Both the position numbers and the translations under genes were made by a program. A stretch of DNA of 56,101 nt from Acidobacteriota bacterium (lineage in GTDB: Bacteria; Acidobacteriota; Polarisedimenticolia; JACPZX01; DASXTC01): NCBI GenBank assembly GCA_045402695.1, contig JAWPNA010000030.1:1-56101 (forward strand). The letters run 5' to 3'. Shown piece after piece: positions 6,611 to 32,618 of this stretch. Below the pieces are notes generated by a model, which saw nothing but the letters and a program-made list of their open reading frames with translations, was not told the DNA's origin and did not search any database. Each line of letters opens with the position of its first letter. Position 1 is the first letter of the stretch.

Positions 6611-6612
6611 CG

Positions 6613-9525: not shown

Positions 9526-12500
9526 TCAGCGTTCCGCCTTCAGTGTCGGCAGCAGCGGCGCGCGCAGCGACGACCTGACGGCGATGAGGGTGGAGACCAG
9601 ACCCACGACGAGCACGGCCGCCAGCGTGGCGCCGACGGAGATCCAGGACGACCCGCTCGCGCCCGAGATGAAGCGCGGCGACACGGCGGCGAGCGCCGAG
9701 GCCGTGCCCGCGGTCATTCCGAAGCATAGAAGAAAGACGTTCTCCACGAACACCAGAGCGGTGAGCCGGGGCCGCGAGAAGCCGATAGCGCGCATCACCG
9801 CCAGCTCGCCGCGCCGCTCGATGGCGTTCCTGACCACCACGATCCCCAGGCCCAGGGTGCCGAGCAGCAGCCCCAGCCCTCCCAAGGCCTCGAAGGTCGA
9901 GAGGTAGGTGTTCTCCACCGCATGGAATGCGGAGATGCGGCTCGCCACGGTCTCGACGTCGAGCCCCTGCGCGCCGAGCGCGCTCTTAAGGACGCGCGCG
10001 ATCTCGCCGGCCAAAGAGGGCGGGGCGTCGATCAAGAATGCGGCGTACCCGCCGTGGCTCGGAAAGTGATCGAGGAGCGCCTTCTCCGGGATCAGGACCT
10101 CGCTCTGGAACGGACTGCCCGCGAGCAAGGCGACGAAACGCAGGCGCAGCGTCCGGCCGAACTCGTCCTGCACGACCAGGTCCTGTCCGAGACCCAGGTG
10201 GAGGATCCACTGCACGGAGTTGACGTCGCCGATGGCCGGGACCACTCCGGGCTCGATCTCCTGCCTCAGGAGTGTCCATGGGTTGTCAACGTCCGCGATC
10301 GCGCCGTGGAAGGCGAACCCGCCGCGCTCGATCTGCGCAGCGGCCACTCCGAGCAGGCGCGGGCGCTCGGGGCGGTACAGGTTCAGGCACGACACGTCGT
10401 CACCCGGCACGGTCCGGAAGGAGACGACCGTGGCCGCCCGCATCAGTGGCTCCGCCTCGCCGGGAAACCCCATCTCGGCCCGACCCGCCGCGGTGTTCAA
10501 GTCCTGGTGCAGCGGGATGTCCGACTCCGCCACGAGCGCGTAGCCTCCGGAGCCCGAGTGACGATCTTGCGGTCCAGCCTCCGCATCGCGGCGGCTCGCG
10601 GCCGTCATGACGATGATGAAGCAGGCGCAGGCGATCAACATGGCGCTGAGGATGCTCCGGCCCGGATTCCACGAGCAGTTCCTCACGGCCATCGCCGCGA
10701 AGGCGCTCCTGCCCGGCCTCACAAGACGGCGGCGTCCCGGGGCGCGGCACCAACGGGCGAAGAACGCCAGCGACGAGGCCAGGACCGAGGCGCCGATCCC
10801 GAAGGAAAGCGCCGGATCGGAGCTCCTCCCCGTGAGGACGGCGCCCAGGAAAAAGACGACCCCCGACGCGAGCCCGCCGAACGCGATCCAGGTCGAGATT
10901 TTTCCCGGCGCCCGCCCGCCGCCGGCCGCGACGTGACCCGAGAGAAGCAGCGGCACCGGGATCCTCTTGAGCCGGCCAAGCGCCCAGAAGATCGAGGCGA
11001 TGACGGTGGCAAGCGAGGACAGCGCCCCCGCCGCGAGACTGGCGGCGCTCACGTGGAGAAACAGATGCGAGGAGCCCGAGGCTCCTTTCCAGACCGTCCG
11101 CAGGCCGAGCATCAGCAGCCCCGCGTAGGCGACGCCCAGGGCCAGACCGAGTCCGGCGCCGGCCGCGGCGATGACCGATCCCTCGAGGAGGAAACGCCCA
11201 AGCACCGCGCGCACCCGGTAGCCGGAAGCGAGCAGGACGCCGATCTCGCGCGCTCTTGACTCCACGCCCAGGCGAAACAGCAGCCCGCACAGCAACACGG
11301 ACGAGATGATCAGGAAGAAGCTGAACGCCAGGAAGAGCGACCCGAAATCAGTGGCTCCCGCGGAGGCCCGCAGGCCCTCGTCCTTGACATCCCGGAAGCG
11401 CAGGCCGAACAGCTCGGGAGGAAGCTCGCGCTTGATTCCCGCGCTCAGGCGCCCCGCGAACTGCTGGAGGTCCGTCCCCGCGGGAGGCACGACGCGCAGC
11501 GCCGTGGTGTTCCCGTATCGGCTCGTCCAGAGGCGTCTCGCATCGACTTCCGACACGAACGCCTTGGGAGCGGCGCCGTACCGGTCCCAGTACTCCTCGT
11601 CGTGCGGGCGGATCCGGTTCAGCTCGACGGGGAAGGGCGGGTTCCACGAGGCGATGTCGGGCGCTCCCTTGATGCCGGGATAGTCAGGAGTGAGGGTTCG
11701 ATCCACCGCCAGCCCTCGCATCGCGGCGATTCCGCTCACGCGGAAAAGGGCGGTCCTGGTCAGAAGATCCTCCTTCTCGCCCACGACGAAGTAGGTCACG
11801 TCCACCTCGTCCCCCGCGACGGCGTGGAGATCCTGTGCCGCCCACGCATCGAGCAGAATCTCGCCTTCCTTCGGAGCGGGGGCCGGGCTTCCGTCCTCCA
11901 GCCACAGCCCGGAAAAGGGCGGACCCGCGTTGCTCACCGCGGTGATGGTGGAGTAGGGCACCGATCCTCGGCTCGAGCTCATCCGCACCGCGAGGTAGGT
12001 CAGCACGCGCTGCACGGAGGCTCCCATCGAAGCGGCCACCGACTCGACCCCCTCGGCCACCTCGGGCCTCAGGACGAACTCACGGCTCTCGATGGAGAGA
12101 TGATCGGGAGTGCGGGAGAGGAGGAGTCCCATGTCGTCCAGATCGAGAGCCTGCGTGACCTTGAGGGCGACGTCGGATGCGGGAGAAGCGCCGCCCGCCG
12201 CCAGAAGGGCGTTGATCCTCCCCTCCCGGCGCAGCGCGCGCTGCAGATCGGACAGGGAGAGGTAGGCGTTACGCGGCCGCGCCTGCCGCGCCGAGAGATC
12301 GAACAAGCCTGGCCCTTCGTCTGGAATGACGCCGGCCAGCCGGCATCGCATGGTGGCCACGACGTTCTCGAGGTCGCGCCGGCCCAGCAGGCTGTCGGGT
12401 GGCGCATCACTCGCGCGCGGGAACGACAGCAGGATCGGATCGCCCTCCGATGCGCCCAGCTCCCGCGCCAGCGAGCCGTTGAGGAACACCCGAGGCTCGC

Positions 12501-12900
12501 CCCGGGCCGGCTCGCGCGAGAGAGTCAGGCCCGCGGCAGCCGCGGCGGGAGGGTACAGAGCCGCGAACCTGCCGTCCACGCCGAGGATGTTGATCTTCCC
12601 CGCGCGGGCGCGCGAGGCGGCGTGCACCGCGGCGCCCTTCAGGATGATGGCCGGCGCGGTAGCCGCCTCCGATCCCGCGGAGCCGGGGCCATCAAGTGCC
12701 TCGACGAGCGACTCGCGGAGGTAGCGCGTGGAGACCAGCGCCCGATCGATTGACCCCAGCCGATCCAGCGTCAGGTCCGCGAGGCTCCCACGCACCGAAT
12801 CGCCCACCAGCAGAGCCCCGGTGAGCACGGCGCAGGTCGTGGCCGCTCCCAGTGCCACGGCCATGTTGATCCACCGGTAATAGGTCAGACTTCGGAGCAA
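9526..12900 (-). CDS. Very large ABC transporter permease with two FtsX domains (MacB/LolCE type)
   Basis: Two FtsX-type 4-TM modules are present (FLAFSFFLIISSVLL...REIGVLLASGYR...; LGLGIVVVRNAIERRGELAVMRAIGFSRPRL...), separated by large extracytoplasmic regions. The start is uncertain. I favour TTG at 12900 (LLRSLTYYRW...) or ATG at 12864, because the ORF start at 13062 would overlap the upstream ATPase by 178 nt. Confidence 0.85.
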   Translation of the reverse strand: MLRSLTYYRWINMAVALGAATTCAVLTGALLVGDSVRGSLADLTLDRLGSIDRALVSTRYLRESLVEALDGPGSAGSEAATAPAIILKGAAVHAASRARAGKINILGVDGRFAALYPPAAAAAGLTLSREPARGEPRVFLNGSLARELGASEGDPILLSFPRASDAPPDSLLGRRDLENVVATMRCRLAGVIPDEGPGLFDLSARQARPRNAYLSLSDLQRALRREGRINALLAAGGASPASDVALKVTQALDLDDMGLLLSRTPDHLSIESREFVLRPEVAEGVESVAASMGASVQRVLTYLAVRMSSSRGSVPYSTITAVSNAGPPFSGLWLEDGSPAPAPKEGEILLDAWAAQDLHAVAGDEVDVTYFVVGEKEDLLTRTALFRVSGIAAMRGLAVDRTLTPDYPGIKGAPDIASWNPPFPVELNRIRPHDEEYWDRYGAAPKAFVSEVDARRLWTSRYGNTTALRVVPPAGTDLQQFAGRLSAGIKRELPPELFGLRFRDVKDEGLRASAGATDFGSLFLAFSFFLIISSVLLCGLLFRLGVESRAREIGVLLASGYRVRAVLGRFLLEGSVIAAAGAGLGLALGVAYAGLLMLGLRTVWKGASGSSHLFLHVSAASLAAGALSSLATVIASIFWALGRLKRIPVPLLLSGHVAAGGGRAPGKISTWIAFGGLASGVVFFLGAVLTGRSSDPALSFGIGASVLASSLAFFARWCRAPGRRRLVRPGRSAFAAMAVRNCSWNPGRSILSAMLIACACFIIVMTAASRRDAEAGPQDRHSGSGGYALVAESDIPLHQDLNTAAGRAEMGFPGEAEPLMRAATVVSFRTVPGDDVSCLNLYRPERPRLLGVAAAQIERGGFAFHGAIADVDNPWTLLRQEIEPGVVPAIGDVNSVQWILHLGLGQDLVVQDEFGRTLRLRFVALLAGSPFQSEVLIPEKALLDHFPSHGGYAAFLIDAPPSLAGEIARVLKSALGAQGLDVETVASRISAFHAVENTYLSTFEALGGLGLLLGTLGLGIVVVRNAIERRGELAVMRAIGFSRPRLTALVFVENVFLLCFGMTAGTASALAAVSPRFISGASGSSWISVGATLAAVLVVGLVSTLIAVRSSLRAPLLPTLKAER

Positions 12901-13568
12901 ACGCCCTCCGACAGCTTGAGCCGGCGCTCGAACATGGCGGCCAGCTCGAGACCATGCGTGACGGCGATCAGGATGTTGCGTTCGCGCCGGTGCTGGTCGA
13001 ACAGCATCGCGGCCACGCCGGCGGCCGAGGTCGCGTCGAGGTTGCCGGTCGGCTCGTCGCACAGCAGCAGGCCGGGGCCATTGACGAGCGCGCGGGCCAC
13101 CGCCGCGCGCTGCCTCTCGCCTCCGGAGAGCTCCGCGGGCCGATGAGCCAGACGTCCCGACAGGCCGACGCGCTCGATCAGCTCAACGGCCCTGCGCTCG
13201 GCCGCTGCGCCACCCTTGCCCAGAGCCATCGCGGGCAGCAGGACGTTCTCGAGCACCGAGTACTGCGGCAGCAGATGATGGTCCTGGAACACGAACCCGA
13301 TGGCGCGGTTGCGGAACACCGCCAACTCCGGCTCGGGCAGGATGTGAGGCATTCGCCCGCCGATCTCGATCGTGCCCGAGGTGGGCGCGTCGAGCGTCCC
13401 GATGAGGTGCAGCAGCGTGCTCTTGCCCGCGCCCGAAGGCCCCACGATCGCCAGCGATTGGCCAGCCTGCATGCGGAACGAGATCCCCCGGAGCACCTCG
13501 ATCGTGTCGGGGCCCAGCCGGTAGCTCTTGTGGAGGTCCGCTACGACCAGGGAGATCGAATTTGTCAT
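12885..13568 (-). CDS. ABC transporter ATP-binding protein (LolD/MacB-ATPase-like)
   Basis: Walker A GPSGAGKST, ABC signature LSGGERQR and Walker B LLLCDEPT are all present. ATG at 13568. Confidence 0.95.
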   Translation of the reverse strand: MTNSISLVVADLHKSYRLGPDTIEVLRGISFRMQAGQSLAIVGPSGAGKSTLLHLIGTLDAPTSGTIEIGGRMPHILPEPELAVFRNRAIGFVFQDHHLLPQYSVLENVLLPAMALGKGGAAAERRAVELIERVGLSGRLAHRPAELSGGERQRAAVARALVNGPGLLLCDEPTGNLDATSAAGVAAMLFDQHRRERNILIAVTHGLELAAMFERRLKLSEGVCSEV

Positions 13569-13577: not shown

Positions 13578-13994
13578 CTACCGCGGCGCCGGCTCGATCC
13601 GGCGGGCGAGATCGCCCGGGATCGGGATCGACTCGAATCCGCCCCCGGGTGTTCTGGTGCAGCACACCGACGTCGTCCGCCCTCTGGCCAGCTCGGTTTC
13701 GCCCCTGCGCAGGGTGAACCCGTAAGTGATCGTACTCCGCGTCACCTTGAGGACCTTCAGGTGGACCTCGATCTCCTCGCCGTAGCGCGCCGAGGCTAGA
13801 TACTCGCAGGAGACATCCACCTTGGGCCAGCCGCCGGGCCTTCCCTCGTGCTCGAAGGTGAACCCCCAGCCCAGCGACCTCAGGAATTCGTCCTCGGCCG
13901 TCTCCATGAAGATGAAGTAGCGGCTGAAGTGCACGACCCCCCCCGCGTCGGTGTCGGAGAACTCGATGCGGCGCTTCGCAATCAGCTCGTGCAT
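13578..13994 (-). CDS. Acyl-CoA/acyl-ACP thioesterase, hotdog fold (4HBT/YbgC family)
   Basis: The segment EFSDTDAGGVVHFSRYFIFMETAEDEFL is typical of the YbgC/4HBT family. ATG at 13994 is preceded by GGGAGG immediately after the upstream stop. The longer ORF start at 14036 was rejected. Confidence 0.8.
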   Translation of the reverse strand: MHELIAKRRIEFSDTDAGGVVHFSRYFIFMETAEDEFLRSLGWGFTFEHEGRPGGWPKVDVSCEYLASARYGEEIEVHLKVLKVTRSTITYGFTLRRGETELARGRTTSVCCTRTPGGGFESIPIPGDLARRIEPAPR

Positions 13995-14004: not shown

Positions 14005-15324
14005 TCAGGCCGGCTCCTCCGGAGACAGGGCCTCAAGGTACACCTTCAAGGTCTCCTCCGCCATCACGACGTCGGAATAGAAGCGCCTCACCGCCGCCCG
14101 GCCGTTTTCGCCCAGGGCCCGGCGGCGGGCGGGATCGTCCATCAGACTCAAGAGCGCCTCCGCCAGGCCAGTAGCCGACCCGGGCGGAAACATCACCCCG
14201 CCGGCCGTCTTTTCCAGAATCTCCGGGAAGGAGCCGTGGCGAGGCAGAGCGGCGGGCACGCCGTTGGCGAGCGCCTCGAGGACCGACAATCCCTTCGACT
14301 CGCGGTAGATCGTGGGCACGCACAGCACGTCGAGCCCGTTGAGGAACCTGATTTTCTCGGCGCGGTCCACCTCGCCCAGGTAGGTGACGCTCCCGGCCAG
14401 TCCCAAGGACGCGATCCGCCGCGTCACCTGTGTGAAGTAGGCGCGATCGCGTGGGCCCAGGTACCCAGCGACCTTCAGCGATACGCGGTCGGCTCCCACC
14501 CGTCGCGCGAGAAGGTGGAACCCCTCAGCCAGAAGGTGCAGTCCCTTCTCGGGGCAGATGCGCGCCAGGTAACCGATGACGAACGGGCCGGTCGTCCGCT
14601 CGTTCACGCGCTCATCCCGCGCCGCATCACCGTGCCCGCGAAGGTTCAATCCGAGGGGCACGGTCCGCATCTTTCGTTCGGGCAGGGCCAGCATCTCGCG
14701 CATCCGTTCGCCGTACTCGCGGCTGGTGGCGATGAACAGGTCGGCGTCCTTCGCCTTGGCCCGCATCATGTGGAGCACTCTCTCGCGCCAGGGCTCGCGC
14801 AGCCCCTCCAGGAACAGGTCCTCTCCCTGAACGGAGCAGATCACGGGCACCCCCAGCTCGCGCTTCATCGGCCCGGCCAGCCCGAGAAACATCGAGTTGG
14901 TGAGGTGGACGATCTCCGGCTTGAAATCATCCCGAAGCCACCAGACCAGCCGCTGCAGCTCCTTGCGCTGCCCTCCCTCCTCGCCGGACAGCACAGATAA
15001 GGTCAGTCCGCCGAGATCGGCGGCACTGGTGGAGGAGCCGAGGCGCGACGCGAGCGCCAGAAGCCACGGGTGGTCGAGCAGGCGGTCGAGCATCCGGGGG
15101 GTGTGCGAGAGCAACGGTACCCTGTTTTGCAGGTAGATGTTCACCGCGCCGTAAAACACGCGCCCCAGGCTGACGTTTTCCTCGTCCGTCCGAATCGGAG
15201 TGTAGGTGGGGATCAGGACGATGTCATGGCCGAGCTTGCGAATGGCCGCCGCCAGCGTGTTGTCGTGCACGCAGCTTCCGCACAGCATGCCGGCGGCGCC
15301 GGCGGAGACATAGGCGATCTTCAT
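14005..15324 (-). CDS. Glycosyltransferase, GT-B fold (GT4/GT1-like)
   Basis: The C-terminal donor-binding motif is present: ESKGLSVLEALANGVPAALPRHGSFPEIL (E-x7-E type). The N-terminus MKIAYVSAGAAGMLCGSCVHDN carries a CxxC motif. Its ATG (15324-15322) overlaps the symporter stop (ATGA). Confidence 0.85.
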   Translation of the reverse strand: MKIAYVSAGAAGMLCGSCVHDNTLAAAIRKLGHDIVLIPTYTPIRTDEENVSLGRVFYGAVNIYLQNRVPLLSHTPRMLDRLLDHPWLLALASRLGSSTSAADLGGLTLSVLSGEEGGQRKELQRLVWWLRDDFKPEIVHLTNSMFLGLAGPMKRELGVPVICSVQGEDLFLEGLREPWRERVLHMMRAKAKDADLFIATSREYGERMREMLALPERKMRTVPLGLNLRGHGDAARDERVNERTTGPFVIGYLARICPEKGLHLLAEGFHLLARRVGADRVSLKVAGYLGPRDRAYFTQVTRRIASLGLAGSVTYLGEVDRAEKIRFLNGLDVLCVPTIYRESKGLSVLEALANGVPAALPRHGSFPEILEKTAGGVMFPPGSATGLAEALLSLMDDPARRRALGENGRAAVRRFYSDVVMAEETLKVYLEALSPEEPA

Positions 15325-21783: not shown

Positions 21784-21804
21784 CCGCGTCATCGGACGAC
21801 GCGG
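21784..21804 (-). other. Intra-operon stem-loop in the only sizeable internal gap of the gene train, flanked by a 9-bp direct repeat
   Basis: CCGCGTC (21784-21790), 7-nt loop, GACGCGG (21798-21804). GGCGCCGGA occurs at 21773-21781 and again at 21808-21816. Confidence 0.3.
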
Positions 21805-21835
21805 CGAGGCGCCGGAAATCGCCGGGTTTACCTTC

Positions 21836-24303: not shown

Positions 24304-25486
24304 ACAGCGTCCTCAGATCCCGCTCGGCCACGGGCCGCGGGTTGAACTCGGCTGTCCACTGCTGGGCGGCCTCCCCCGCGAGCCGCGCAAGCGCCTCTTC
24401 GGGGACCCCGGCGTCGCGCAGTCTCGCCGGCAGTCCGCCCAGATCCCTCATCCACGTCACTCGCTCAGCCATCCCTCCCGAGCCGCCGCTCTCATCGGCC
24501 TTCAGCAACTCCGCGTACATCCGCCCCGCGACCGGCTCGTTGTACCGGATCACGTGGGGAAGCATCAGCAGGACCGCGGCGCCGTGCGCCACGCCGTAGC
24601 CCGACGTCAGCGGGTTCGCGCAGGCATGGGCCGCGCCCAGCATCGAAGCCTCGATCGCCGCGCCCGCCAGATGCGCTCCTAGCAGCATCCGGCCGCGCGC
24701 CTCGGCATCCGCGGGACCGGTCAGGGCGGATGCGAAGGCGCTCGAGAGCAGTGACCAGGCCTGCCGCGCGAGCATCCGGGAGATCGGGTTGCCTCGGGTG
24801 CTCACGTAGCTCTCGATGGCGTGGGAGATCGCATCCAGACCGGAGACGGCGGCCAGACCGCGCGGGCAGGTGGCCGTGAGCTCCGGGTCAAGGATCACCG
24901 CGGCAAAGCGCGCCTTCTCGTCACCGCAAGCCATCTTCCGGCGCGAGCCCTCCTGCTCGATAAGGGCATACGACTGCATCTCGCTTCCCGTCCCCGCGGT
25001 GGTGGGGATGCCGATCGAACGGAGCATCGGCTTGACGGCGCGGCCGGTCCCCCAGTAATCCTCCATGCGGCCGCCGTTGGTGACGAGGAAGTTGATCCCC
25101 TTGGCGCAGTCCATGGCGCTTCCGCCCCCCAGCCCCACGATGAGGTCCATGCCCTGCCCGCGCGCGAAGGCCGCCCCCTCCTCGACGTGGCGGGTCGTCG
25201 GGTTCACGTCCACGCCGTCGAAGATCGACACGCGCAAAGATTCCGACGCGAGCGAAGCCTCGGCGCGGGCGGCGTGGCCCGCCTTGCGCACCCCTGGATC
25301 GGTCACCAGCAGGACGCGCCGGGCGTGAAGCTCCGCGGCCAGCCCCCCCAGACCGGCGAGCGTCCCCGCGCCGAAGATGACGCTCGCGCCGCCGAAGGGA
25401 GCCCTCCACAAGCCCAAGGAGCGCTCCGCGCTCAGGCACGCGGTGGCCCCCGAGGGGATCATGAACCGTCTATCCTGAGTCGCCAT
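24287..25486 (-). CDS. Iron-containing (group III) alcohol dehydrogenase
   Basis: GGGSAMDCAKG (GGGSxxD), PTTAGTGSE and the His-rich metal site HACANPLTSGYGVAHGAA are all present. Confidence 0.9.
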   Translation of the reverse strand: MATQDRRFMIPSGATACLSAERSLGLWRAPFGGASVIFGAGTLAGLGGLAAELHARRVLLVTDPGVRKAGHAARAEASLASESLRVSIFDGVDVNPTTRHVEEGAAFARGQGMDLIVGLGGGSAMDCAKGINFLVTNGGRMEDYWGTGRAVKPMLRSIGIPTTAGTGSEMQSYALIEQEGSRRKMACGDEKARFAAVILDPELTATCPRGLAAVSGLDAISHAIESYVSTRGNPISRMLARQAWSLLSSAFASALTGPADAEARGRMLLGAHLAGAAIEASMLGAAHACANPLTSGYGVAHGAAVLLMLPHVIRYNEPVAGRMYAELLKADESGGSGGMAERVTWMRDLGGLPARLRDAGVPEEALARLAGEAAQQWTAEFNPRPVAERDLRTLYESAY

Positions 25487-25495: not shown

Positions 25496-26926
25496 TCACG
25501 CCGCCGGGGCGGTCTGCACCGCCCGCTGCCGGTACAGGTGCTCGAAGAGGTTTCCTTCGTGGGGCTGATCCCATGACACCCGGCAGGTGGGGATCTCTCC
25601 CAGGTTGAGCCGGTCGATCGTGGGACAATCCAGCAGCTCGACCACGAAGTCCTGGTCCCGGGTCAGCGCGGTGGCCACCAGCGTCGGGCCGATCCGGGCC
25701 GCCATCTCACACTGGTTCACCTGCACCACCGTGGCGAATGGGAACAGGAATTCGCAGCCCGCCAGTGGATGTTCCGGATCCTCGCACCAGACCAGCGTCG
25801 GCCTCAGGAACGTGCACCCATCCACCTGCACGACCCTCTCCGCGTCGCGCGCGCGCGCCGTGAGGTCCTCCGCCCCCGGCACCCTCAGCAATCGATCGAT
25901 GTGCTCCGAGATCGCGATCGCCTGCCGCCTGTCCGTGAAGGCCGCGAGCGACGCGGCAGGATCATTGAGGGGCCGCGGTTCGATCGCCGCCAACCGGCCG
26001 GCCAGAGCCTCGGCGATCTCGCGGCCGTGCCCCGCGGTCCACACCCCTGAAGCGTTGAGGCAGGATCTGCCGCCGTTCTCGGCGATCGATGTGACCATCA
26101 GATCCAGGTGGCCCCTATATGAGGCCGCCGCGTCTTCATCCAGAATCACCTTGCTCCATCCCGGGCCGTGGAGCTGCACACGCGGGTCGTCCTGCCACGC
26201 CCGCAGCGTGCCCGCGTCGCCGAACAGCATCGAGCGACCGCACCGCAGCAGGATCTCGTTGGCGCCCGAATGATCGCTCGGATAGAGACTGAACGCCTGA
26301 GGCGGCGCACCCGCGGCCATCAGCGCCCGCGCGATGCGCAGAGGCGTCCACGGCTCCTGGCGTCCCGGCTTCAGGACCAGCGGCATCTTGAGAGGGAAGG
26401 CGGGCACCCAGAGCGAGTGCACGCCGGGCGAGTTGGAAGGAAGCACCGCGCCGAGAGCCTCCGTCTGCCCGATGTAGGAGACGCCGCGATCCGCCTCCGT
26501 CCCCCATCCGCGGTCCAGGATCGAGAGAGGAAGGCCGCGCGTCCAGCCTGCAAGCACCCGTCGCATTTCGTGCAGCACGAAGCGGATCTTCTCCATGTTG
26601 GCGCGGCAGAGTGCCAGCGGCATCCCCGTCGTGGAGGACAGATGATCGAGGTATTGCGCGGGAGAGTGCGACGTGGCGCCGTCCACCGGGAGATCGCTCT
26701 GCGAGAACATATAAGCCGCCTTCCCGCAGATCGCGATGAGATCCTCCGTCTCGCGCCGTCTCAGGATCCCGCGGTTGCGACCGGCCTGGAGGAGATCCAT
26801 GGCGATCAGGCCTCGATTGGCCTGGCTCACCTCGGCCACTGTCTCTCCGGTGCGCGCGTCCTTCAGGCGGAAGAGATCGAGGCTGCGGTATGGTCGGCCG
26901 GCGCGCAGGACGGGGACGTGGAGCAT
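25496..26926 (-). CDS. Aldehyde-dehydrogenase-superfamily protein, possibly an acylating/thioester-reducing (LuxC-like) type
   Basis: The ALDH core VLPSNSPGVHSLWVPAFPLKMPLVLKPGRQEP and the catalytic-Cys context ENGGRSCLNASGVW are present. I place the start at MLHVPVLRAG (ATG 26926-26924), which overlaps the upstream stop as TGATG. Confidence 0.8.
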   Translation of the reverse strand: MLHVPVLRAGRPYRSLDLFRLKDARTGETVAEVSQANRGLIAMDLLQAGRNRGILRRRETEDLIAICGKAAYMFSQSDLPVDGATSHSPAQYLDHLSSTTGMPLALCRANMEKIRFVLHEMRRVLAGWTRGLPLSILDRGWGTEADRGVSYIGQTEALGAVLPSNSPGVHSLWVPAFPLKMPLVLKPGRQEPWTPLRIARALMAAGAPPQAFSLYPSDHSGANEILLRCGRSMLFGDAGTLRAWQDDPRVQLHGPGWSKVILDEDAAASYRGHLDLMVTSIAENGGRSCLNASGVWTAGHGREIAEALAGRLAAIEPRPLNDPAASLAAFTDRRQAIAISEHIDRLLRVPGAEDLTARARDAERVVQVDGCTFLRPTLVWCEDPEHPLAGCEFLFPFATVVQVNQCEMAARIGPTLVATALTRDQDFVVELLDCPTIDRLNLGEIPTCRVSWDQPHEGNLFEHLYRQRAVQTAPAA

Positions 26927-28023
26927 CAGTAGACTCCCACTACGACGCTTTCCTGAAGAGAAGTGAGCAGCCTCAGGTTCGACACTCCGTCCCACGGAAA
27001 CCGCTCGCAGGGACGGGCGCGCTCCCCCTCGTCTCTCTCGAGGAAGCGCGGCATGAAGAAGTCCCGCGTCAGCGTGGTCAGCATCACGCGGCCGGTCTCG
27101 CCGTAGGCGACGGGAGTCTCGGGATCGTCGGGCCGCACCAGCTCGAAGACGGCACGCGGGGAGGGCGGGTAGTAGGTGATCGCGTAATCATCGGCCGGAT
27201 CGAACGGCTTGGGGCAGGCCAGCCCCATCAGCGTGTTGCCGTAGGTCGGAACGAAGTCGATGCCCGGCGCCAGCTCCTCGCGCACGAAGCGGTGAAACTG
27301 CGCCGTCATCTCCGTCCCGCCGCAGAAGATGCCGGTGATCCCCGCGTTTTTAAGGGAGATCCTCTCGCACAGAGCCTCCAGCAGCTTCGGCGTGGTGAAG
27401 AGGCACCGGATCGAGTCGTGTCCCTTGAGGACCTTCAGCGCCTGATCGATCACGTGGCTCTTGTAGGCCTGAAGCTCCCTGAAGCGATGGTCCTTCACGA
27501 TCTGATTGACCCAGCGCGGGTCCAGGTCCACGAAGAAGGCGATGCCTCCCCGGTGCTGGGCGAGATGCTCGATCGAGAGGCGCAGCCGCCGCGGCCCCGT
27601 CGGGCCGAGCATCAGCCAGTCGGCGCCGCGGGGAAAGGCGGTGGCGGAAAGCGTCTCGCTGAACATCTCATAGTCAATCTGGAAGTCCTCGATGTTGAGC
27701 CGTGTCTTGGGCATGCCCGTGGAGCCTCCCGTCTCGAAGGCGAACATCGGCTTGCCCGCGAGACCCGCCGGCAGCCACCGGCGCGCCGGGCCCCCGCGCA
27801 GCCACTCGTCCTGGAAGTGGCCCAGCAGCTTCAGGTCGTCGTAGCCGCGGATCCTCTCTTTCGGATCGAAGCCGAGCGATGCCGCGAACTCCAGCCAGAA
27901 GGGGGAGCCGGTCTGACGACTGAAGTGCCAGCTCACCATCTCACGCACGTGCGCATCGAGCCGCGCGCGCGCGGCGGCGTGCTCCTGCTCCAGCGCCGCT
28001 GACTGTGTCTCCCGCATGGTCAT
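26926..28023 (-). CDS. Adenylate-forming enzyme of the PaaK / coenzyme-F390-synthetase / LuxE-like (ANL) group
   Basis: The P-loop-like motif FETGGSTGMPK corresponds to SSGTTGKP in PaaK. The ~365-aa size fits. Start options are GTG 28062 (overlaps the P3 stop as TAGTG), ATG 28023 or ATG 28017. The last is 6 nt after GGGAG and is best supported. Confidence 0.75.
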   Translation of the reverse strand: MTMRETQSAALEQEHAAARARLDAHVREMVSWHFSRQTGSPFWLEFAASLGFDPKERIRGYDDLKLLGHFQDEWLRGGPARRWLPAGLAGKPMFAFETGGSTGMPKTRLNIEDFQIDYEMFSETLSATAFPRGADWLMLGPTGPRRLRLSIEHLAQHRGGIAFFVDLDPRWVNQIVKDHRFRELQAYKSHVIDQALKVLKGHDSIRCLFTTPKLLEALCERISLKNAGITGIFCGGTEMTAQFHRFVREELAPGIDFVPTYGNTLMGLACPKPFDPADDYAITYYPPSPRAVFELVRPDDPETPVAYGETGRVMLTTLTRDFFMPRFLERDEGERARPCERFPWDGVSNLRLLTSLQESVVVGVY

Positions 28024-28061: not shown

Positions 28062-29654
28062 CTACGGTCCGGCCGGATGCCTGGCCGCCGCGATACCGCC
28101 GGCGAGGGCGAACAGCTTCGTGCGGCTGACGATGTACAAGACACCGTCCTTGGCCGTGGGGGTCGTGTAGACGGCATTGCCCATGTTGATCTCCGCGATC
28201 AACTCAGGCTTCTTGCCCTCCCTGAAGACCGCCACGTCGCCGTCCTCATCGCCGATGTAGACCTTTCCGTCCGCCACGAAGGGTGACCCCCAGACCGCGG
28301 CGGCCAGGTCGTGCGTCCATTGGTGCTGTCCCGTGCGCGCGTCCAGGCAGTAGAGAAAGCCGTTGAGATCGGCCGCGTACAGAAGCCCGTCGTGGATCGC
28401 CACCGATGAAATCGTGCGGTGGAAGTCCTGATTGCCCCGATGCCACACCATTGCCGTCTGGGTGACGTCGCCTGTCTTCGTGGCGTCGATGGCCCACAGG
28501 TGTCCGATTCCCTCGCCGTGCTCCGGGTCCTGGCCCACGCCGACGAACACCTTGTCCTCCCAGATGACCGGTGTCGCGATGATCTCGTTTCTCGTCCCGC
28601 GCCCGCCCAGGACGTACACAGCGTCCTTCGGGTTGGCGTCGAACTTCCAGATCTGCTTGCCCGTCTCGGGCTCGAAGGAGTAGACCCAGCCGTCTCCGCC
28701 GGGAATGATCACCTGCGGTTTCCCCTTGATGACACCGTATGCTGGGTTGGACCAGGAGCCGTGCAGGATGTGCTCGCGCGGGGAGGCGTCCTCCCACACG
28801 AGCTTGCCGGTGTTCTTGTCGAGCGCGATGAAGCTGGGCGCGTCGGGCGACGGGATGTTCACGTGCCCTTCGTCAACACCGTTACCCGTCACCGTGAACA
28901 GCAAGTCGCCGGCCACGAGAGGGCTGCCCGCGGCGAGGTTGTGCGGGAAGACCGCGAGATTCCCCATCATGTCGAACTTCCAGACGATGTCCTCGTCGAC
29001 CTCGCTGGCGTCGGACTCCTGCGTGAAGGGACCATCGTTTTCGCCGTCCATGAACCCTTCGGTGTCGGCGCAGATCACCTCGGCGCGGTTGGAGACGTAG
29101 TAGATGCGATCGCCGTGCACGTACGGCGTCGAGCAGACCCCCTGCATCGGCCAGTCGTTCACCATTCCCGCCGGCAGCTTGGGATGGGCGGCCTGCCAGA
29201 GGAATTTGCCGTCCGCCGCGCTGAAGGCCATGACCACGCCGCGATCGCTCTTGAGCTTCGGGTTGCGCAGCCCTTCGTTGTTGGTGCCGACGAAGACCTT
29301 GCCGCGGTACACCACGGGTCCCGCGTAGGTCTGCGATCCCAGCGCGGCAACCCACTTGATGTTCAGGCCGGTGGCCGGGTCCCACATCTGAGGAAGCCCC
29401 TTCTCGTCGGACACCTGGTTGCGCGAGAGGGTCTGGCCGAAAAGGGCTGGAGCCCCAGGGGCGCCGGCCGCGCCGGACGTCCCTGCCGGGGGCTTGCCGG
29501 CGTCCGCCGGTTTCGCCTGGCCCGCAGGGGCCGCGGGCATTGTCTGCGCCGCGGGGCCGGTCTGCTTGGTCTGCGCCGTGGCGCGCGCGCCCGCCGCGAG
29601 AGCCACCGCGGCGAGGATGAGGCCGCAGGTCGCGAACAACCATCGCTTCGTCAT
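28062..29654 (-). CDS. Exported PQQ-like beta-propeller repeat protein, paralogue P3, with Ala/Pro/Gly-rich linker
   Basis: Signal peptide MTKRWLFATCGLILAAVALAAGARA, then the low-complexity stretch TAQTKQTGPAAQTMPAAPAGQAKPADAGKPPAGTSGAAGAPGAP, then propeller blades. The ATG overlaps the P4 stop (ATGA at 29651-29654). Confidence 0.85.
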   Translation of the reverse strand: MTKRWLFATCGLILAAVALAAGARATAQTKQTGPAAQTMPAAPAGQAKPADAGKPPAGTSGAAGAPGAPALFGQTLSRNQVSDEKGLPQMWDPATGLNIKWVAALGSQTYAGPVVYRGKVFVGTNNEGLRNPKLKSDRGVVMAFSAADGKFLWQAAHPKLPAGMVNDWPMQGVCSTPYVHGDRIYYVSNRAEVICADTEGFMDGENDGPFTQESDASEVDEDIVWKFDMMGNLAVFPHNLAAGSPLVAGDLLFTVTGNGVDEGHVNIPSPDAPSFIALDKNTGKLVWEDASPREHILHGSWSNPAYGVIKGKPQVIIPGGDGWVYSFEPETGKQIWKFDANPKDAVYVLGGRGTRNEIIATPVIWEDKVFVGVGQDPEHGEGIGHLWAIDATKTGDVTQTAMVWHRGNQDFHRTISSVAIHDGLLYAADLNGFLYCLDARTGQHQWTHDLAAAVWGSPFVADGKVYIGDEDGDVAVFREGKKPELIAEINMGNAVYTTPTAKDGVLYIVSRTKLFALAGGIAAARHPAGP

Positions 29655-31876
29655 CGTGGGTTCACCGTCACCTTGACCTTGTCATAGAAGATGTCCGCCG
29701 CCGAGTATCCGTACAGACCAGGGCTGCCCTGCCGGATGGGCAGAGGATCCTCCGCCTCGATGGTCCATCCTTCGGGCTCAGCGGAGGAAGCCGGCCAGAC
29801 CTTGCCCCGGATGAACGCCTTGTCCTGCTTGATCTCCACCGTCAGCTTCATCGTGTACCAGACATCGGGATCCCAGGCGAAATCGACCGTCTGCTGCAGC
29901 CTGGGCTCCACCTCCACCCAGTCGCGAAGCTGGAGCCTCTTGTGGTTGCCCATCAGGTCGAGCGTGTAGCCCGAGGCGATGAGCCCCATGTCGGGACGCC
30001 ATCGGCCCTTGATCGAGCCCATCAGGTCCGCCTGTATGGTGTAGCCGCTCATCGTGGGTGGGCCGATGAAAAGGCTGGAGCGCTCGAGCCCTTGATCCAT
30101 GAACGGCTTGGTCAGCACCTTGTTGCCCCCCTTGTCGGCCACGACGAACCGGCTGGCGCCACCGACCCAGTATGGGGGGTTCTTGCCGATCTCGATCCCC
30201 TCGAACTCCTCCTGCCAGGGAAGATCGGCGAAGACCCTCACGCGCGCCGTGGCCTTGAGGTCGCCGGCCTGAAGCGTCACGAGGCCGGCCTGCGATCCGC
30301 GCGCGCGATCGGGTGTGAGCCGGCCCTGCGCGTCGATCTTGCCGATCAGGCCTTGCAGCCCCCACGTGCCGGCCACATCACCGATCATCCGGCCGGCGGC
30401 GTCAAATGCAAGCGCTCTGAACGCCACCGTTTCACCCGGCTTGACGACCACTTCCGCCGGAAGCACTTGGAGCCACGACGCGCGCGCCCCGGCTTCGGCC
30501 TTTGCCTCGGGAGGAAGATCCGCCTTGCCGGCCGAGAGAGCGAACCGAGCCTTCTTGTCGCCGAGGCAGTAGAGACCCTCCTCGGTCGTGAAGTAGACAC
30601 GGCCGTAGGCGATGGCGGGGGAGCCGTACGTCTCGGCGGGCCGTTCCCCCTTCACCAGGATTTGCTCTTTATCCAGCGAGACGGCCTGCGCCGCTTCCGG
30701 GCGGAGAATGTGGAAGCCTCCGTTCACCTCCGTGGCGAAGATCTTTCCATCCGCCCAGACCGGCGATCCCTTTCCGACGGTTCCGAGGTTGTACTGCCAC
30801 CGGCGCTTTCCATCCGCGGCATCCAGGGCGAACATGTTGGCCGAGTCATCCACGACGTACAGTGTGTCGCCGTGGAGCAGCGGTGAGGCGAACCCCACCT
30901 CCAGCTCGTCGGCGCGCCAGATCTCGCCGGTCTTGGTGATGTCGCCCGAGCCGGAGCCGTCGATGCAGACCACGCGACCCTTGGTTCCCTCGTCTATGTT
31001 CTCGTCTCCGCTGGTGGCGTACACCCGATCGCCGTCCACCACCACGGACGTGTTCATCCCCTGCTTGCTCAACTGGAAGCTCCACACCTTCTCGCCGGTG
31101 GAGGCCTTCAAGGCATAGATCCAACCGTCTCCATTCCCCCCGAAGAGCAACCGCTGCCCTTTGATCACCCCCGCCACCTGGGTGGCCTGCGTTGTCATCG
31201 GATCGGGTTTTCCTCCTGGTGCCGATGCCCAGGCCAGCTCGCCCGTCCTCTTGTCGAAGGCGAAGTATCGGTGGCGCGGCGCTCCCTGATCGCCCCACCC
31301 GAAGTTGGAGAAACCGAGGACCACGTGGTCCCCGTCCAGCATGGGTGAGTGGGTGCGTCCCCCATAGCCGGAGACGCGCCCGAACTCCTCCGTCAGCGAT
31401 CGCGACCAGACGATCTCTCCCTTGCGGTCGAGGCACAGGAACAGTCCCCCCACGCCGTGCGCGTAGAGGTACCCGGTCTGAGGGTCGGCCACGATGTTGG
31501 CCCATCCCGCCCGCGTGAAGGGGACGGTCGTGTGATAGACGTTGATCCTGTGCTCCCAGAGCCGCCGGCCGCTCTCCGCGCTGAAGCAGGCCACGACCTC
31601 CTGCTTGGTGATGCCGCTTCCGGTCCTCCCCATGACGCAGACGCGTCCGTCGAATACCACCGGAGTGGAACGGCCGATGAAGTCCGCCTTCCAGATCAGG
31701 TTCTCTCCCGAGGTGGACCAGGTGGAGACGAGGCCTGTCTCATCCGAGACCCCGTTCTGGTGGGGACCGCGCCATGAGGCCCATTCGGAGGCCCGGACGG
31801 ATGGGGTGCCGAGGGCAGCGAGCCCGGGCACGAGGATGCAGGTCAATGCGATCGCCAAACCTCGGATGATCTTCAT
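29651..31876 (-). CDS. Exported PQQ-like beta-propeller (P4) fused to a Big_2-like Ig domain and a C-terminal LamG/DUF1080-like jelly-roll
   Basis: Signal peptide MKIIRGLAIALTCILVPGLAALG, then EWASWRGPHQNGVSDETGL. The propeller spans about 430 aa. An Ig-like segment follows (VLPAEVVVKPGETVAFRALAFDAAGR...TARVRVF). The ~230-aa C-terminal domain ends in GLYGYSAADIFYDKVKVTVN. Confidence 0.85.
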   Translation of the reverse strand: MKIIRGLAIALTCILVPGLAALGTPSVRASEWASWRGPHQNGVSDETGLVSTWSTSGENLIWKADFIGRSTPVVFDGRVCVMGRTGSGITKQEVVACFSAESGRRLWEHRINVYHTTVPFTRAGWANIVADPQTGYLYAHGVGGLFLCLDRKGEIVWSRSLTEEFGRVSGYGGRTHSPMLDGDHVVLGFSNFGWGDQGAPRHRYFAFDKRTGELAWASAPGGKPDPMTTQATQVAGVIKGQRLLFGGNGDGWIYALKASTGEKVWSFQLSKQGMNTSVVVDGDRVYATSGDENIDEGTKGRVVCIDGSGSGDITKTGEIWRADELEVGFASPLLHGDTLYVVDDSANMFALDAADGKRRWQYNLGTVGKGSPVWADGKIFATEVNGGFHILRPEAAQAVSLDKEQILVKGERPAETYGSPAIAYGRVYFTTEEGLYCLGDKKARFALSAGKADLPPEAKAEAGARASWLQVLPAEVVVKPGETVAFRALAFDAAGRMIGDVAGTWGLQGLIGKIDAQGRLTPDRARGSQAGLVTLQAGDLKATARVRVFADLPWQEEFEGIEIGKNPPYWVGGASRFVVADKGGNKVLTKPFMDQGLERSSLFIGPPTMSGYTIQADLMGSIKGRWRPDMGLIASGYTLDLMGNHKRLQLRDWVEVEPRLQQTVDFAWDPDVWYTMKLTVEIKQDKAFIRGKVWPASSAEPEGWTIEAEDPLPIRQGSPGLYGYSAADIFYDKVKVTVNPR

Positions 31877-32051
31877 GCCATCCTTATCGCTCCAGAGGGT
31901 GTCCGGTGGAACAGAAGTCCCCCATTCTAAAGCACGGACAGGCCAGGGTGCACGTTGTCATTGCTGACGGGGCGGTGTCGGCCCAGGATAGTACGCCGGA
32001 ACGGCAGGCGGGTTATCCCCGGAATGGGCGGACCGCAGTTTTTACAAGGTT

Positions 32052-32618
32052 TTACATCCTCCGGGGCGAAGCAACGGGAGCGGGCCCGGCGGACGGGGAG
32101 ATCACGCCCGCGGCGGGGGAGGGGGCCTCGGGCTTGTAGAGCGACACGAGACATCCACCTGCCGCCGCCAGTGCGATGCCCAGCAGGAACTGCCAGCGCA
32201 ATGTCCTGAGTCCTCCGGCCGGGGGATGCATCGCGAAGGCGGTGAGCGCGTTGACGATCGGGGCCCCCGCGAACACGATCGACATGACCACTCCGGGCGA
32301 GCCCTTGGCCCCGAATGCCAGCAGAACGCAGAAGGCGCCCGCCGCTCCGACCAACCCCGCCAGCAGCGACCAGGCGACGCCGCGCGCGGGAAAGTGCCAC
32401 GAGGAGCCGCGGAGGATCAACAGCGCCAGGGGCGCCAGCACGGCGGTAAGAAAGTAGGCGATGCCGACGAACAGGAAGGCTCGGTAGCGCCCGTTGACCG
32501 GATCGGCCATCGAGGTCTGGCCGGCGTGCAGAAAGACGCCGTACAGCCCCCAGGTCAAGACGGTCATAAGGGCGAACACCAGCCAGTGAATGCCCGTCTC
32601 CGCCGCGCCCCCTGACAT
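32052..32618 (-). CDS. Small polytopic inner-membrane protein (EamA/DMT-like half-transporter?)
   Basis: About 5 predicted TM helices (HWLVFALMTVLTWGLYGVFL, FLFVGIAYFLTAVLAPLALLIL, and others). ATG at 32618 is preceded by a GGAGG RBS with 6-nt spacing. The longer ORF start at 32660 was rejected. Confidence 0.7.
   Translation of the reverse strand: MSGGAAETGIHWLVFALMTVLTWGLYGVFLHAGQTSMADPVNGRYRAFLFVGIAYFLTAVLAPLALLILRGSSWHFPARGVAWSLLAGLVGAAGAFCVLLAFGAKGSPGVVMSIVFAGAPIVNALTAFAMHPPAGGLRTLRWQFLLGIALAAAGGCLVSLYKPEAPSPAAGVISPSAGPAPVASPRRM

Follow-up and report, generated by a model that had tools for sequence, protein, structure and literature searches.

In the Pantoea agglomerans gene cluster of the D-alanylgriseoluteic acid pathway, the atypical ANL enzyme EhpF, an adenylating protein of about 360 residues that lacks the usual C-terminal subdomain, is encoded next to EhpG, a protein of the aldehyde dehydrogenase (ALDH) family. 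In 2010, Bera et al. reportedly proposed that an aromatic carboxylate is activated and reduced in this pathway towards the hydroxymethyl group of griseoluteic acid. Here we analyse a stretch of 56,101 nucleotides from an Acidobacteriota bacterium (contig JAWPNA010000030.1 of assembly GCA_045402695.1; this whole stretch is called the window), in which a train of 17 genes encodes an EhpF/EhpG-type pair (g4 and g5) followed by an iron-containing alcohol dehydrogenase (Fe-ADH; g6), together with exported β-propellers, tailoring enzymes and transport proteins. We tentatively propose, with slightly less than even confidence, that this conserved cluster converts a monocarboxylic acid, most likely a (hetero)aromatic one, into the corresponding alcohol, which is then tailored and carried across the envelope. 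The ehp cluster and the window share the adjacent pair but differ in much else: identity is 31% for g4 and 24% for g5, the ehp cluster lacks the Fe-ADH, propellers, GT4 glycosyltransferase and transporters that the window's cluster has, and the latter contains no phenazine or chorismate genes.

Two better-known routes to aldehydes, LuxC/LuxE and carboxylic acid reductase (CAR), share with this pair ATP-dependent acid activation, an acyl-enzyme thioester and NAD(P)H-dependent aldehyde release. However, CAR has a phosphopantetheine carrier domain whereas the window's cluster has none, and the Lux system differs in that the nearest relatives of the window's pair are aryl rather than fatty-acyl enzymes, the window's thioesterase has a hotdog fold and LuxD is absent. 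A further point of comparison is a preprint by Loureiro et al. (bioRxiv 10.64898/2026.08.03.742642), in which sponge metagenomes were mined for neighbourhoods combining a halogenase and an AMP-binding protein ('Halo_AMP'). That text describes orphan clusters from Acidobacteriota, Latescibacterota and Poribacteria that, like the window's cluster, combine a flavin-dependent halogenase and a PaaK-like adenylating enzyme with frequent pyrroloquinoline quinone (PQQ)-like domains, TonB-dependent transporters, radical S-adenosylmethionine (SAM) enzymes, glycosyltransferases, thioesterases and ABC exporters. The best MIBiG gene matches given there are the PaaK-like BagE and YtkN, Bmp2 and BrtI; the clusters themselves have no MIBiG match and no assigned product. 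When the Halo_AMP rule (Trp_halogenase plus AMP-binding within 20 kb) was applied to the window, the halogenase scored 98 bits and AMP-binding 21.3 bits, the latter below the Pfam cut-off of 29.9. The focus family of the preprint has P450s, which are absent from the window's cluster, and the search is for brominated peptides; unlike the Halo_AMP sampling, the window's cluster family is not confined to sponges. Compared by description only, the two families overlap strongly, and in the preprint the cluster type is glimpsed, neither defined nor explained.

The reductase core of the window consists of three genes:

26926–28023, minus strand: g4, EhpF-type truncated ANL adenylating enzyme (365 residues from the ATG at 28023; 378 residues from the GTG at 28062).
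25496–26926, minus strand: g5, EhpG-type ALDH-fold reductase (476 residues; weak Pfam Aldedh match).
24287–25486, minus strand: g6, Fe-ADH (399 residues; Fe-ADH match at E = 5.4e-46, plus ADH_Fe_C).

g4 aligned over its full length with EhpF (PDB 3hgu/3l2k; E = 1.1e-40, query residues 37–378 against chain residues 25–369, 31% identity), and the EhpF entries were its sole relatives of known structure in a PDB search. The motifs GGSTGMPK and YGNT can be read in its sequence, its Pfam AMP-binding match is the sub-threshold one given above, and no NCBIfam model names the family of g4 or of its Streptomyces, Pantoea and archaeal relatives. By tblastn, g5 matched the ALDH gene that abuts ehpF on phenazine-cluster plasmids of P. 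agglomerans (24% identity, 98% coverage, E = 1e-24). The g4 and g5 genes adjoin as in Pantoea, with a 1-nt overlap in the window, and a Proteus paper labels the same Pantoea-type pair ehpF/ehpG. The pair forms a tight orthologous group, with about 50–75% identity across phyla (50–72% for g5), and a search with g5 of 1.84 billion cluster representatives (one per 50%-identity cluster) returned only 294 relatives at E ≤1e-30.

An alignment of 24 g5 orthologues showed two invariant residues, Cys289 in NGGRSCLNASG and His253 in HGPGWSK. As read from these motifs rather than from a structural superposition, Cys289 would lie at the position of the ALDH cysteine and His253 at that of the ALDH general-base glutamate. 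Retention of the cysteine with replacement of the hydrolytic glutamate is what a thioester-reducing, and not an aldehyde-oxidising, enzyme would need. Several observations connect g5 to the alcohol dehydrogenase. Public metagenomes contain natural proteins of 856–872 residues in which a g5-type domain is fused to a complete Fe-ADH (P0364, P0373 and P0362), the ALDH and Fe-ADH genes are adjacent in 25 of 48 full loci, and only 9 nt separate g5 from g6 in the window. Because of these fusions, this adjacency and this spacing, the predicted route from acid through acyl-AMP, acyl-enzyme and aldehyde to alcohol is well supported and the firmest statement that we make about the locus. The layout of the fusion proteins resembles that of AdhE. 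For g6 itself, the best NCBIfam model was ErcA, below its cut-off, and a look-up of its exact sequence returned no entry.

An earlier reading of the DNA letters and open reading frames (ORFs) alone, hereafter the initial annotation, had already placed the steps in the order ligase, ALDH-like enzyme, Fe-ADH, and the full-length EhpF alignment, the EhpG homology and the fusions uphold that order. Its PaaK/LuxE-like and ALDH/LuxC-like labels, by contrast, have to be replaced: Pfam scans at E ≤0.01 gave no match to LuxC, LuxE or LuxD, only the sub-threshold AMP-binding match for g4 and only Aldedh for g5, and the pair is homologous to EhpF/EhpG. 'EhpF/EhpG-type, probably aryl' would be a better description than 'fatty-acyl/Lux-like'.

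The acid reduced is most likely a (hetero)aromatic monocarboxylate rather than a fatty acid. All relatives of the pair with annotated context lie near phenazine, chorismate, PabB or DAHP-synthase genes, or beside a polyketide synthase (PKS). The Pantoea relative sits amid phenazine genes, and one Streptomyces relative has an isochorismate synthase, a PhzF-like protein and a DAHP synthase nearby. Some Streptomyces g4 homologues carry the RefSeq name 'arylcarboxylate reductase', for which no hidden Markov model in the NCBIfam library accounts. These aromatic contexts, together with a phenol/pyrrole-class halogenase, a HemN-like radical SAM enzyme and a 4-hydroxybenzoyl-CoA/YbgC-type hotdog thioesterase in the window (described below), argue for an aryl rather than a fatty acid; a monocarboxylate-type symporter and the EhpF-type ligase additionally point to a (hetero)aromatic monocarboxylate. 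The fatty-acyl product envisaged in the initial annotation is therefore not supported, as neither LuxC nor LuxE was matched and the annotated relatives all lie in aromatic-acid contexts. Pfam scans of the 17 genes and their flanks found no PKS, non-ribosomal peptide synthetase (NRPS), chorismate-utilising enzyme or carrier protein in the cluster, and the acid would therefore come from general metabolism or from outside.

Two Streptomyces plasmids show such contexts at close range. In S. goshikiensis (locus L091, 7944–14029), an EhpF/EhpG-like pair is followed by a DAHP synthase and PabB, and in Streptomyces sp. NBC_00316 (locus L090, 8935–18062), a g4 homologue lies directly upstream of a type I PKS.

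The ORF list and translations bear out the initial annotation of 17 large co-directional genes, which form an uninterrupted minus-strand train at 9526–32660 in a window of approximately 67% G+C. All junctions that it reported were recovered: ATGA at 29651–29654, 23158–23161, 16781–16784 and 15321–15324, TGATG at 26924–26928, TTGA at 17008–17011 and a 17-nt overlap at 24287–24303, as well as the larger gaps of 78 nt (21758–21835) and 175 nt (31877–32051). Pfam and NCBIfam likewise reproduced its family calls, with the exception of the Big_2 and LamG-like domains assigned to propeller P4. The scans gave PQQ_2 for four propellers, AMP-binding below threshold for the ligase and a weak Aldedh match for the ALDH-like protein, followed by Fe-ADH, Radical_SAM with HemN_C, Plug and barrel for the receptor, Trp_halogenase for the flavoprotein, the DUF3311 and SSF pair, GT4, 4HBT for the thioesterase, the ABC ATPase and two stretches of FtsX in the permease. 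Signal-peptide-like N-termini were present on propellers P1–P4 and on the TonB-dependent receptor, and on none of the enzymes.

We then compared the arrangement across genomes, using tblastn of all 17 window proteins against the loci kept from a pattern scan for g5 relatives (one genome per species; 80 loci kept of at least 600 places) and the gene tables of metagenomic contigs. The recurring order is P4–P3–ligase–ALDH–Fe-ADH–P2–radical SAM–(P1)–TonB-dependent receptor–halogenase–(DUF3311–symporter)–GT4–thioesterase–ABC. Relatives of g5 occur at at least 600 places in the species-representative genome collection and in at least eight mostly uncultured phyla; homologues in public data run to thousands, the best 120 listed being 60–95% identical over their full length. 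Among the 80 kept loci, the acidobacterial groups are Thermoanaerobaculia, Blastocatellia/Pyrinomonadaceae, Vicinamibacterales, Terriglobia, Bryobacteraceae and the isolate 'Acidobacteria bacterium Mor1', and the other phyla are Poribacteria, Latescibacterota, Gemmatimonadota, Verrucomicrobiota, Planctomycetota and Omnitrophota; KSB1 is present among the g5 protein matches. The full order was found in Polarisedimenticolia-like and Thermoanaerobaculia contigs, Mor1, Latescibacterota and Gemmatimonadota. It was kept in part in Poribacteria and an unclassified assembly, and with small rearrangements in Phycisphaerae and Omnitrophota. Apart from g01, the matched genes lie on the same strand as the ALDH gene, bar a few P1, GT4 and ABC matches. 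A shared order thus exists in all three phyla in which the initial annotation had suggested looking (Acidobacteriota, Planctomycetota and Gemmatimonadota), and additionally in Poribacteria, Latescibacterota and Omnitrophota. Because the same gene order recurs across several phyla and the genes overlap or adjoin tightly, the 17-gene train is a genuine unit, conserved far beyond chance, in agreement with the earlier argument for one functional unit.

The cluster is modular. A short form, EhpF–X–ALDH–GT4–ABC–FtsX with the small membrane protein and a P1-like propeller, occurs in Blastocatellia, Pyrinomonadaceae, Terriglobia and Bryobacteraceae, and only the ligase–ALDH–Fe-ADH trio or the ALDH–Fe-ADH pair is kept in Verrucomicrobiota and Phycisphaerae loci (the trio in a Verrucomicrobiaceae locus, the pair in Prosthecobacter and Phycisphaera loci). 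The nearest relatives of the window genes, at 72–95% protein identity, are labelled Candidatus Polarisedimenticolia where they are labelled. The first ten cluster genes, including the TonB-dependent receptor, also occur at 62–87% identity on a contig labelled 'Patescibacteria group bacterium' (L006, DASROJ010000342.1), which is probably mis-binned acidobacterial DNA. One carrier is in culture, Acidobacteria bacterium Mor1 (CP011806, locus L032, with the cluster at about 4.80–4.82 Mb).

Some cluster copies contain inserted mobile or defence-type genes, which leave the order undisturbed. A poribacterial copy (L015, 7008–7988 and 15107–18939) has acquired a YhgA-like transposase, two DUF488 genes and a RecQ-type helicase with DuOB and Gp157 domains, and in an 8-Mb assembly (L093, 14975–15406) an IS200-type Y1 transposase lies between the ligase and ALDH genes. 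The same slot holds a 531-residue protein in a Pyrinomonadaceae locus (L040, 8356–9951), with no significant Pfam match and weak matches to α/β-hydrolase and TPR models; in other lineages the slot is empty or filled by a small propeller-like ORF. The extra genes of the Poribacteria, Pyrinomonadaceae, Prosthecobacter and Phycisphaera loci are mostly insertions or housekeeping genes and are uninformative on the substrate.

Six further genes of the train encode membrane and transport proteins:

32052–32618, minus strand: g01, small membrane protein (188 residues from the ATG at 32618; alternative ATG at 32660).
18296–20482, minus strand: g10, TonB-dependent receptor (728 residues; Plug and β-barrel Pfam matches).
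16781–17011, minus strand: g12, DUF3311 small membrane subunit (PF11755, 37.3 bits, above the cut-off of 30).
15321–16784, minus strand: g13, sodium:solute symporter (SSS; SSF match at E = 2e-41).
12885–13568, minus strand: g16, LolD/MacB/DevA-like ABC ATPase (ABC_tran match at E = 5.8e-34).
9526–12900, minus strand: g17, double-FtsX permease (about 1124 residues; start TTG at 12900 or ATG at 12864).

On the import side, g10 exceeded the cut-off of the TIGR01783 siderophore-receptor subfamily (257.4 bits against 223.5), its nearest named model being the catecholate receptor Fiu, below cut-off. g13 matched the MctP, ActP and PanF models below their cut-offs (MctP at 52.8 against 625) and is probably a monocarboxylate importer, as judged from its family and its neighbour: a DUF3311 gene adjoins the mctP pyruvate/monocarboxylate symporter gene in Sinorhizobium fredii (PMC9100948), an arrangement that the window shares, although the MctP score of g13 remains far below the cut-off. 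On a plasmid of the haloarchaeon Halalkalicoccus jeotgali (NC_014299; locus L092, 7496–11554), an SSS gene is directly followed by EhpF-like and ALDH-like genes, and its product is 28.5% identical to g13 (E = 1.6e-44). Archaea thus also have the reductase pair in association with an SSS importer, and this independent association suggests that the symporter may supply the acid to the reductase.

On the export side, g16 scored 241.6 bits against the LolD model (cut-off 307.75) and also matched the DevA model. In g17, which has two FtsX stretches, hydrophobic segments bracket extracytoplasmic loops of approximately 480 and 240 residues; NCBIfam gave a weak ADOP match and Pfam no MacB_PCD match. 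ABC systems of the LolD/MacB/DevA type act on periplasmic or outer-leaflet substrates and are not known to pump from the cytoplasm. No adaptor or membrane-fusion protein and no TolC-like outer-membrane partner for this ABC system is encoded in the cluster. The small protein g01 has five hydrophobic segments and weakly matches a whole single EamA domain (E = 0.021, below the Pfam cut-off); its orthologues, at 40–80% identity, lie in clusters of other phyla, sometimes after the thioesterase. It is possibly a half-size EamA/DMT-type transporter, which would make it the fourth transporter of the cluster.

Four genes encode candidate tailoring and acid-releasing enzymes:

17008–18321, minus strand: g11, flavin-dependent halogenase of the phenol/pyrrole class (Trp_halogenase, 98 bits).
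21836–23161, minus strand: g8, HemN-like (class C) radical SAM enzyme (441 residues; Radical_SAM and HemN_C above Pfam cut-offs).
14005–15324, minus strand: g14, GT4 glycosyltransferase (439 residues; Glycos_transf_1 at E = 3.4e-28, plus Glyco_transf_4).
13578–13994, minus strand: g15, hotdog-fold (4HBT/YbgC-type) thioesterase (4HBT at E = 3.1e-11).

The start of g11 is ambiguous: the ATG at 18321 gives a 26-nt overlap, and the GTG at 18273 gives a 22-nt gap and the 421 residues found in relatives. At 40–50% identity, its PDB matches were halogenase 8zop (E = 2.4e-68), CndH, Mpy16/Bmp2, PltA, CmlS and ChlB4. GGGPAGS, WFWYIP and the lysine of FTRKHSVQF align with CndH and 8zop, and WxWxIP and the catalytic lysine of FxxKxSxxF were retained in all 13 orthologues; the CmlS equivalog was not reached (199.6 against a cut-off of 900). 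The enzymes known to halogenate unactivated alkyl carbons are of the non-haem iron or CylC type. The CxxxCxxC motif of g8 was retained in all 28 locus copies (27 distinct), and g8 stayed below the NCBIfam equivalog cut-offs for ChuW/HutW (183.9 against 400), HemN (165.7 against 325) and HemW (147.9 against 205), as well as that of the STM4012 model. Its only PDB relatives were HemN (1olt) and the methyltransferase NocN (9p2u); to our knowledge, characterised members of the HemN-like class act on aromatic or tetrapyrrole carbons. For g14, a PDB search returned generic GT4 relatives only, and in Blastocatellia-type clusters its gene directly follows the ALDH-like gene. g15 scored 67.6 bits against a cut-off of 68.7 for TIGR00051, and DTDAGGVVH can be read near its N terminus.

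The remaining four genes of the train, and two on the opposite strand beyond g01, encode exported propellers:

29651–31876, minus strand: P4, exported eight-bladed PQQ_2 propeller with an all-β C-terminal part (741 residues; PQQ_2 at E = 1.9e-51).
28062–29654, minus strand: P3, exported eight-bladed PQQ_2 propeller (530 residues; PQQ_2 at E = 4e-28).
23158–24303, minus strand: P2, exported PQQ-like propeller (381 residues; Beta-prop_ACSF4 at 199 bits, cut-off 133; PQQ_2 at E = 5.6e-38).
20498–21757, minus strand: P1, exported PQQ_2 propeller (419 residues; PQQ_2 at E = 1.1e-33).
32800–34053, plus strand: P5, exported PQQ_2 propeller, divergent from g01 (PQQ_2 at E = 1.9e-32).
34114–35385, plus strand: P6, exported PQQ_2 propeller (PQQ_2 at E = 1.7e-29; signal-peptide-like N terminus).

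P3 is the best-conserved protein of the cluster. It has more than 7900 homologues (69–94% identity among the 120 listed), is approximately 70% identical between the window and Poribacteria (the enzymes 55–65%), and reaches 61–74% across phyla in clusters that keep the P4–P3 pair, against approximately 50–65% for the ALDH-like, Fe-ADH and radical SAM proteins; conservation above that of the cytoplasmic enzymes is unusual for a periplasmic protein. Many of its Asp, Glu and His residues are invariant, for example in DPEHGEGxGH and GDEDGD. AlphaFold confidently predicted an eight-bladed P3 (pLDDT 77.5, pTM 0.79) and, for P4 (pLDDT 86.5, pTM 0.87), a propeller to about residue 440 followed by β domains at 468–548 and 554–738. 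The C-terminal part of P4 had no Pfam match and no PDB sequence or profile match, which leaves its earlier Big_2 and LamG labels unconfirmed. Foldseek neighbours of P3 and P4, at 13–20% identity, were BamB, PQQ-dependent (alcohol) dehydrogenases, tetrathionate hydrolase, YxaL and designed 'Cake' proteins, with tetrathionate hydrolase and BamB as the top matches of P4. No propeller reached the NCBIfam cut-offs of the BamB or PQQ-enzyme models (P3 scored 47.7 against 480 for the PQQ-dependent dehydrogenase model TIGR03075 and 83.2 against 285 for BamB); only the fold is shared, and the structural neighbours point to no function. In relatives, the P2 gene always adjoins the radical SAM gene. The P5 ORF opens at 32590 and its signal-peptide-like stretch begins at residue 71, giving 32800 as the likely start. 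P5 would belong to the system by its position and family, as may P6. In all, P1–P6 amount to six propellers in 26 kb.

The 175-nt gap between g01 and P4 contains conserved DNA, including a motif at the end of g01:

32039–32056, minus strand: tandem DNA motif TGTAAAAC-CT-TGTAAAAA at the g01 stop, identical in the nearest relative, L001 (754–771), and in L006 (755–772).

This motif occurs once in the window, where shuffled sequences gave an expectation of 0.00, and a conserved stretch, CCGTGCTyTAGAATGGG (approximately 31925–31945, minus strand), lies about 100 nt nearer to P4. Because of these conserved motifs, and because P4 is the first cluster gene in an 8-Mb assembly, a promoter ahead of P4 is likely. 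The motifs could have a regulatory role, possibly as operator and promoter of the main operon, and g01 may be a separate transcription unit. Scans for consensus promoters and terminators yielded none above background and none in intergenic positions, and an Rfam scan of the whole window gave no match. The gap also contains an ORF for 25 residues, four of them cysteines (MTTCTLACPCFRMGDFCSTGHPLER; 31884–31961, minus strand); in L001 only the DNA motifs and not the peptide are conserved, and it is probably not a gene. Beyond the train, the flanks encode a 1257-residue S8 subtilase (2837–6610, plus strand), a DUF5946 protein (6613–7125, minus strand) and, at 37677–41800, a MocR-type GntR/aminotransferase regulator divergent from a pyridoxal phosphate (PLP)-dependent decarboxylase and a Cys/Met-metabolism PLP enzyme. 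We found no connection between these flanking genes (2837–7125 and 37677–41800) and the cluster.

Together, these data lead to the tentative model introduced at the outset. g4 would adenylate the carboxylate; g5, with its conserved cysteine and apparently without the hydrolytic glutamate, would take over the acyl group and reduce it to the aldehyde; and g6 would reduce the aldehyde to the primary alcohol. The acid could be taken up through the siderophore-type TonB-dependent receptor and the DUF3311/SSS symporter, and/or be freed from a CoA thioester by the hotdog thioesterase g15. Tailoring may comprise ring halogenation by g11, C-methylation or related radical chemistry by g8 and glycosylation by g14. 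The small EamA-like g01 might then take the product across the inner membrane, and the LolD/MacB-like ABC protein and double-FtsX permease would handle it from the periplasm. Outside the cytoplasm, the compound would be bound or processed by four to six Sec-exported eight-bladed propellers, in a step that the model does not explain. One concrete version would be a make–export–reimport cycle of a metal-binding compound. Pyoverdine traffic offers a parallel, with its periplasmic maturation, the MacB-type exporter PvdRT-OpmQ and TonB-dependent re-uptake; in the window, too, one locus encodes exported accessory proteins together with an ABC system of the MacB/Lol type and a TonB-dependent receptor of the siderophore class. 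The window's cluster differs in having no NRPS or NRPS-independent siderophore (NIS) synthetase and no membrane-fusion or outer-membrane partner, none of its propellers is related to PvdM, N, O, P or Q, and no iron-regulation signal was identified; neither the 17 genes nor the scanned flanks encode an NRPS, an NIS synthetase or another chelator-building enzyme.

Several observations weigh against this model. The cluster encodes no scaffold-forming enzyme, carrier protein, flavin reductase or membrane-fusion/outer-membrane partner. Many lineages, Blastocatellia among them, have no halogenase, TonB-dependent receptor, symporter or radical SAM enzyme within 10 kb of the pair; the core function therefore does not depend on the tailoring steps. 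In KSB1 metagenome-assembled genomes, the P4–P3 pair and the EhpF–ALDH pair occur in unrelated neighbourhoods, and the two Verrucomicrobiota/Phycisphaerae-type loci whose neighbours were scanned sit amid housekeeping-type genes; the housekeeping surroundings and the high conservation across phyla are more in line with a core physiological function than with a niche natural product. The propellers exceed all other parts in conservation and number, yet have no defined role in the scheme. No trait of the locus is stranger than the way in which they are interleaved, in a fixed order and across phyla, with cytoplasmic enzymes, and the model leaves it unaccounted for.

The interleaving is also the main argument for a different explanation, in which a small aromatic molecule, made or remodelled by the enzymes, leaves the cell interior as the prosthetic group or obligate ligand of the propellers, in the manner of PQQ and the quinoproteins or of the qhp and mau maturation clusters. 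Propeller and enzyme genes alternate in a fixed order in at least five phyla, P3 is better conserved than the enzymes and rich in invariant acidic and His residues, the propellers are folded like PQQ-dependent dehydrogenases without reaching the cut-offs of the PQQ-enzyme models, and the halogenase flavoprotein weakly matches the QhpG and LodB maturases. The substrate of EhpF is, moreover, a planar aromatic polycarboxylate, like PQQ. We nevertheless consider this explanation unlikely, though with a real chance of being right: cofactor-free propellers of the BamB kind are common, Verrucomicrobiota and Phycisphaerae have the enzyme trio with no propeller within 10 kb, KSB1 has P4–P3 with none of the enzymes nearby, and neither a glycosyltransferase nor a TonB-dependent receptor would be expected for cofactor supply. 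The initial annotation had offered two readings of its own. In one, a LuxCDE-like reductase yields a fatty alcohol that is halogenated, glycosylated and extruded as a glycolipid, much like the heterocyst glycolipids exported by DevBCA or the bartolosides. Its chemical logic from acid through acyl-AMP, acyl-enzyme and aldehyde to alcohol is retained in our model, the ABC ATPase matches the LolD and DevA models, lipids are often the acceptors of GT4 enzymes, and the MIBiG matches listed in the preprint for similar clusters include BrtI, part of a bartoloside glycolipid exporter. Its fatty-acyl, Lux-like identity was not supported: no Pfam match to LuxC, LuxE or LuxD was obtained, the annotated relatives of the pair are all tied to aromatic acids, the halogenase is of the phenol/pyrrole class and not of a type acting on unactivated alkyl carbons, and the cluster has no fatty-acid or polyketide synthase genes. 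A fatty-alcohol glycolipid is thus a rather unlikely product.

The other reading of the initial annotation was an uptake and catabolism locus, in which the propellers capture or cleave an imported substrate that the cytoplasmic enzymes degrade. Consistent with it are the TonB-dependent receptor and SSS importer, propeller enzymes (tetrathionate hydrolase and PQQ-dependent dehydrogenases) among the structural neighbours, and the haloarchaeal SSS–EhpF–ALDH operon, which lies amid an annotated primary-amine oxidase, a haloacid dehalogenase and a penicillin acylase family protein. Pure catabolism, however, fits poorly with an ATP- and NAD(P)H-consuming carboxylate reduction, which is anabolic, and with the presence of a glycosyltransferase, an ABC system of the exporter type and a halogenase whose motifs are intact, all foreign to known degradative routes; nor does the cluster contain ring-cleavage or β-oxidation genes, and we judge degradation as the purpose of the locus to be quite improbable. 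Because the DUF3311–SSS pair has the MctP architecture and a haloarchaeal operon joins an SSS gene to EhpF and ALDH genes, making for export and importing are probably two halves of one route rather than the alternatives as which they were put forward. Least credible is a cluster for a ribosomally synthesized and post-translationally modified peptide (RiPP), in which the radical SAM enzyme, halogenase and Fe-ADH would modify a small precursor exported by the ABC system. The Cys-rich 25-residue ORF in the 175-nt gap and a weak match of the Fe-ADH to a daptide dehydrogenase model would fit, but conservation of the ORF does not extend even to the nearest relative, the radical SAM enzyme is of the HemN-like and not of the SPASM type, and no RiPP recognition element, protease or cyclodehydratase is encoded, so that we give this idea hardly any weight. 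Haem or tetrapyrrole, pterin, vitamin B6, ether-lipid (including branched glycerol dialkyl glycerol tetraether) and lanthanophore functions were also considered and are not put forward, as no result supported them.

No NCBIfam equivalog or named system fits the cluster, and full-text searches of the literature found no characterised pathway for this gene combination, for 'arylcarboxylate reductase' or for PDB entry 8ZOP, in keeping with the initial annotation, which could name no pathway. The locus is an orphan cluster for tailoring and transport whose foundation is a reductase pair that is known but has received little study, and no part of the route has an assigned product. Solving it would provide a second, widespread context for the carrier-independent reduction of carboxylates by EhpF/EhpG, a chemistry of biocatalytic interest, and possibly the origin of halogenated metabolites attributed to sponge symbionts. 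If the propellers do receive a dedicated cofactor, the system would be a previously unrecognised counterpart of the PQQ–quinoprotein paradigm, with a possibly metal-binding ligand, and would define a new family of exported eight-bladed propeller enzymes across Acidobacteriota, Poribacteria, Latescibacterota, Gemmatimonadota and their relatives. With Mor1 as a cultured carrier, the question is open to experiment, and solving the cluster would give a function to many of the 'PQQ-like/BamB-like' propeller paralogues that abound in Acidobacteriota, Planctomycetota and their neighbours.

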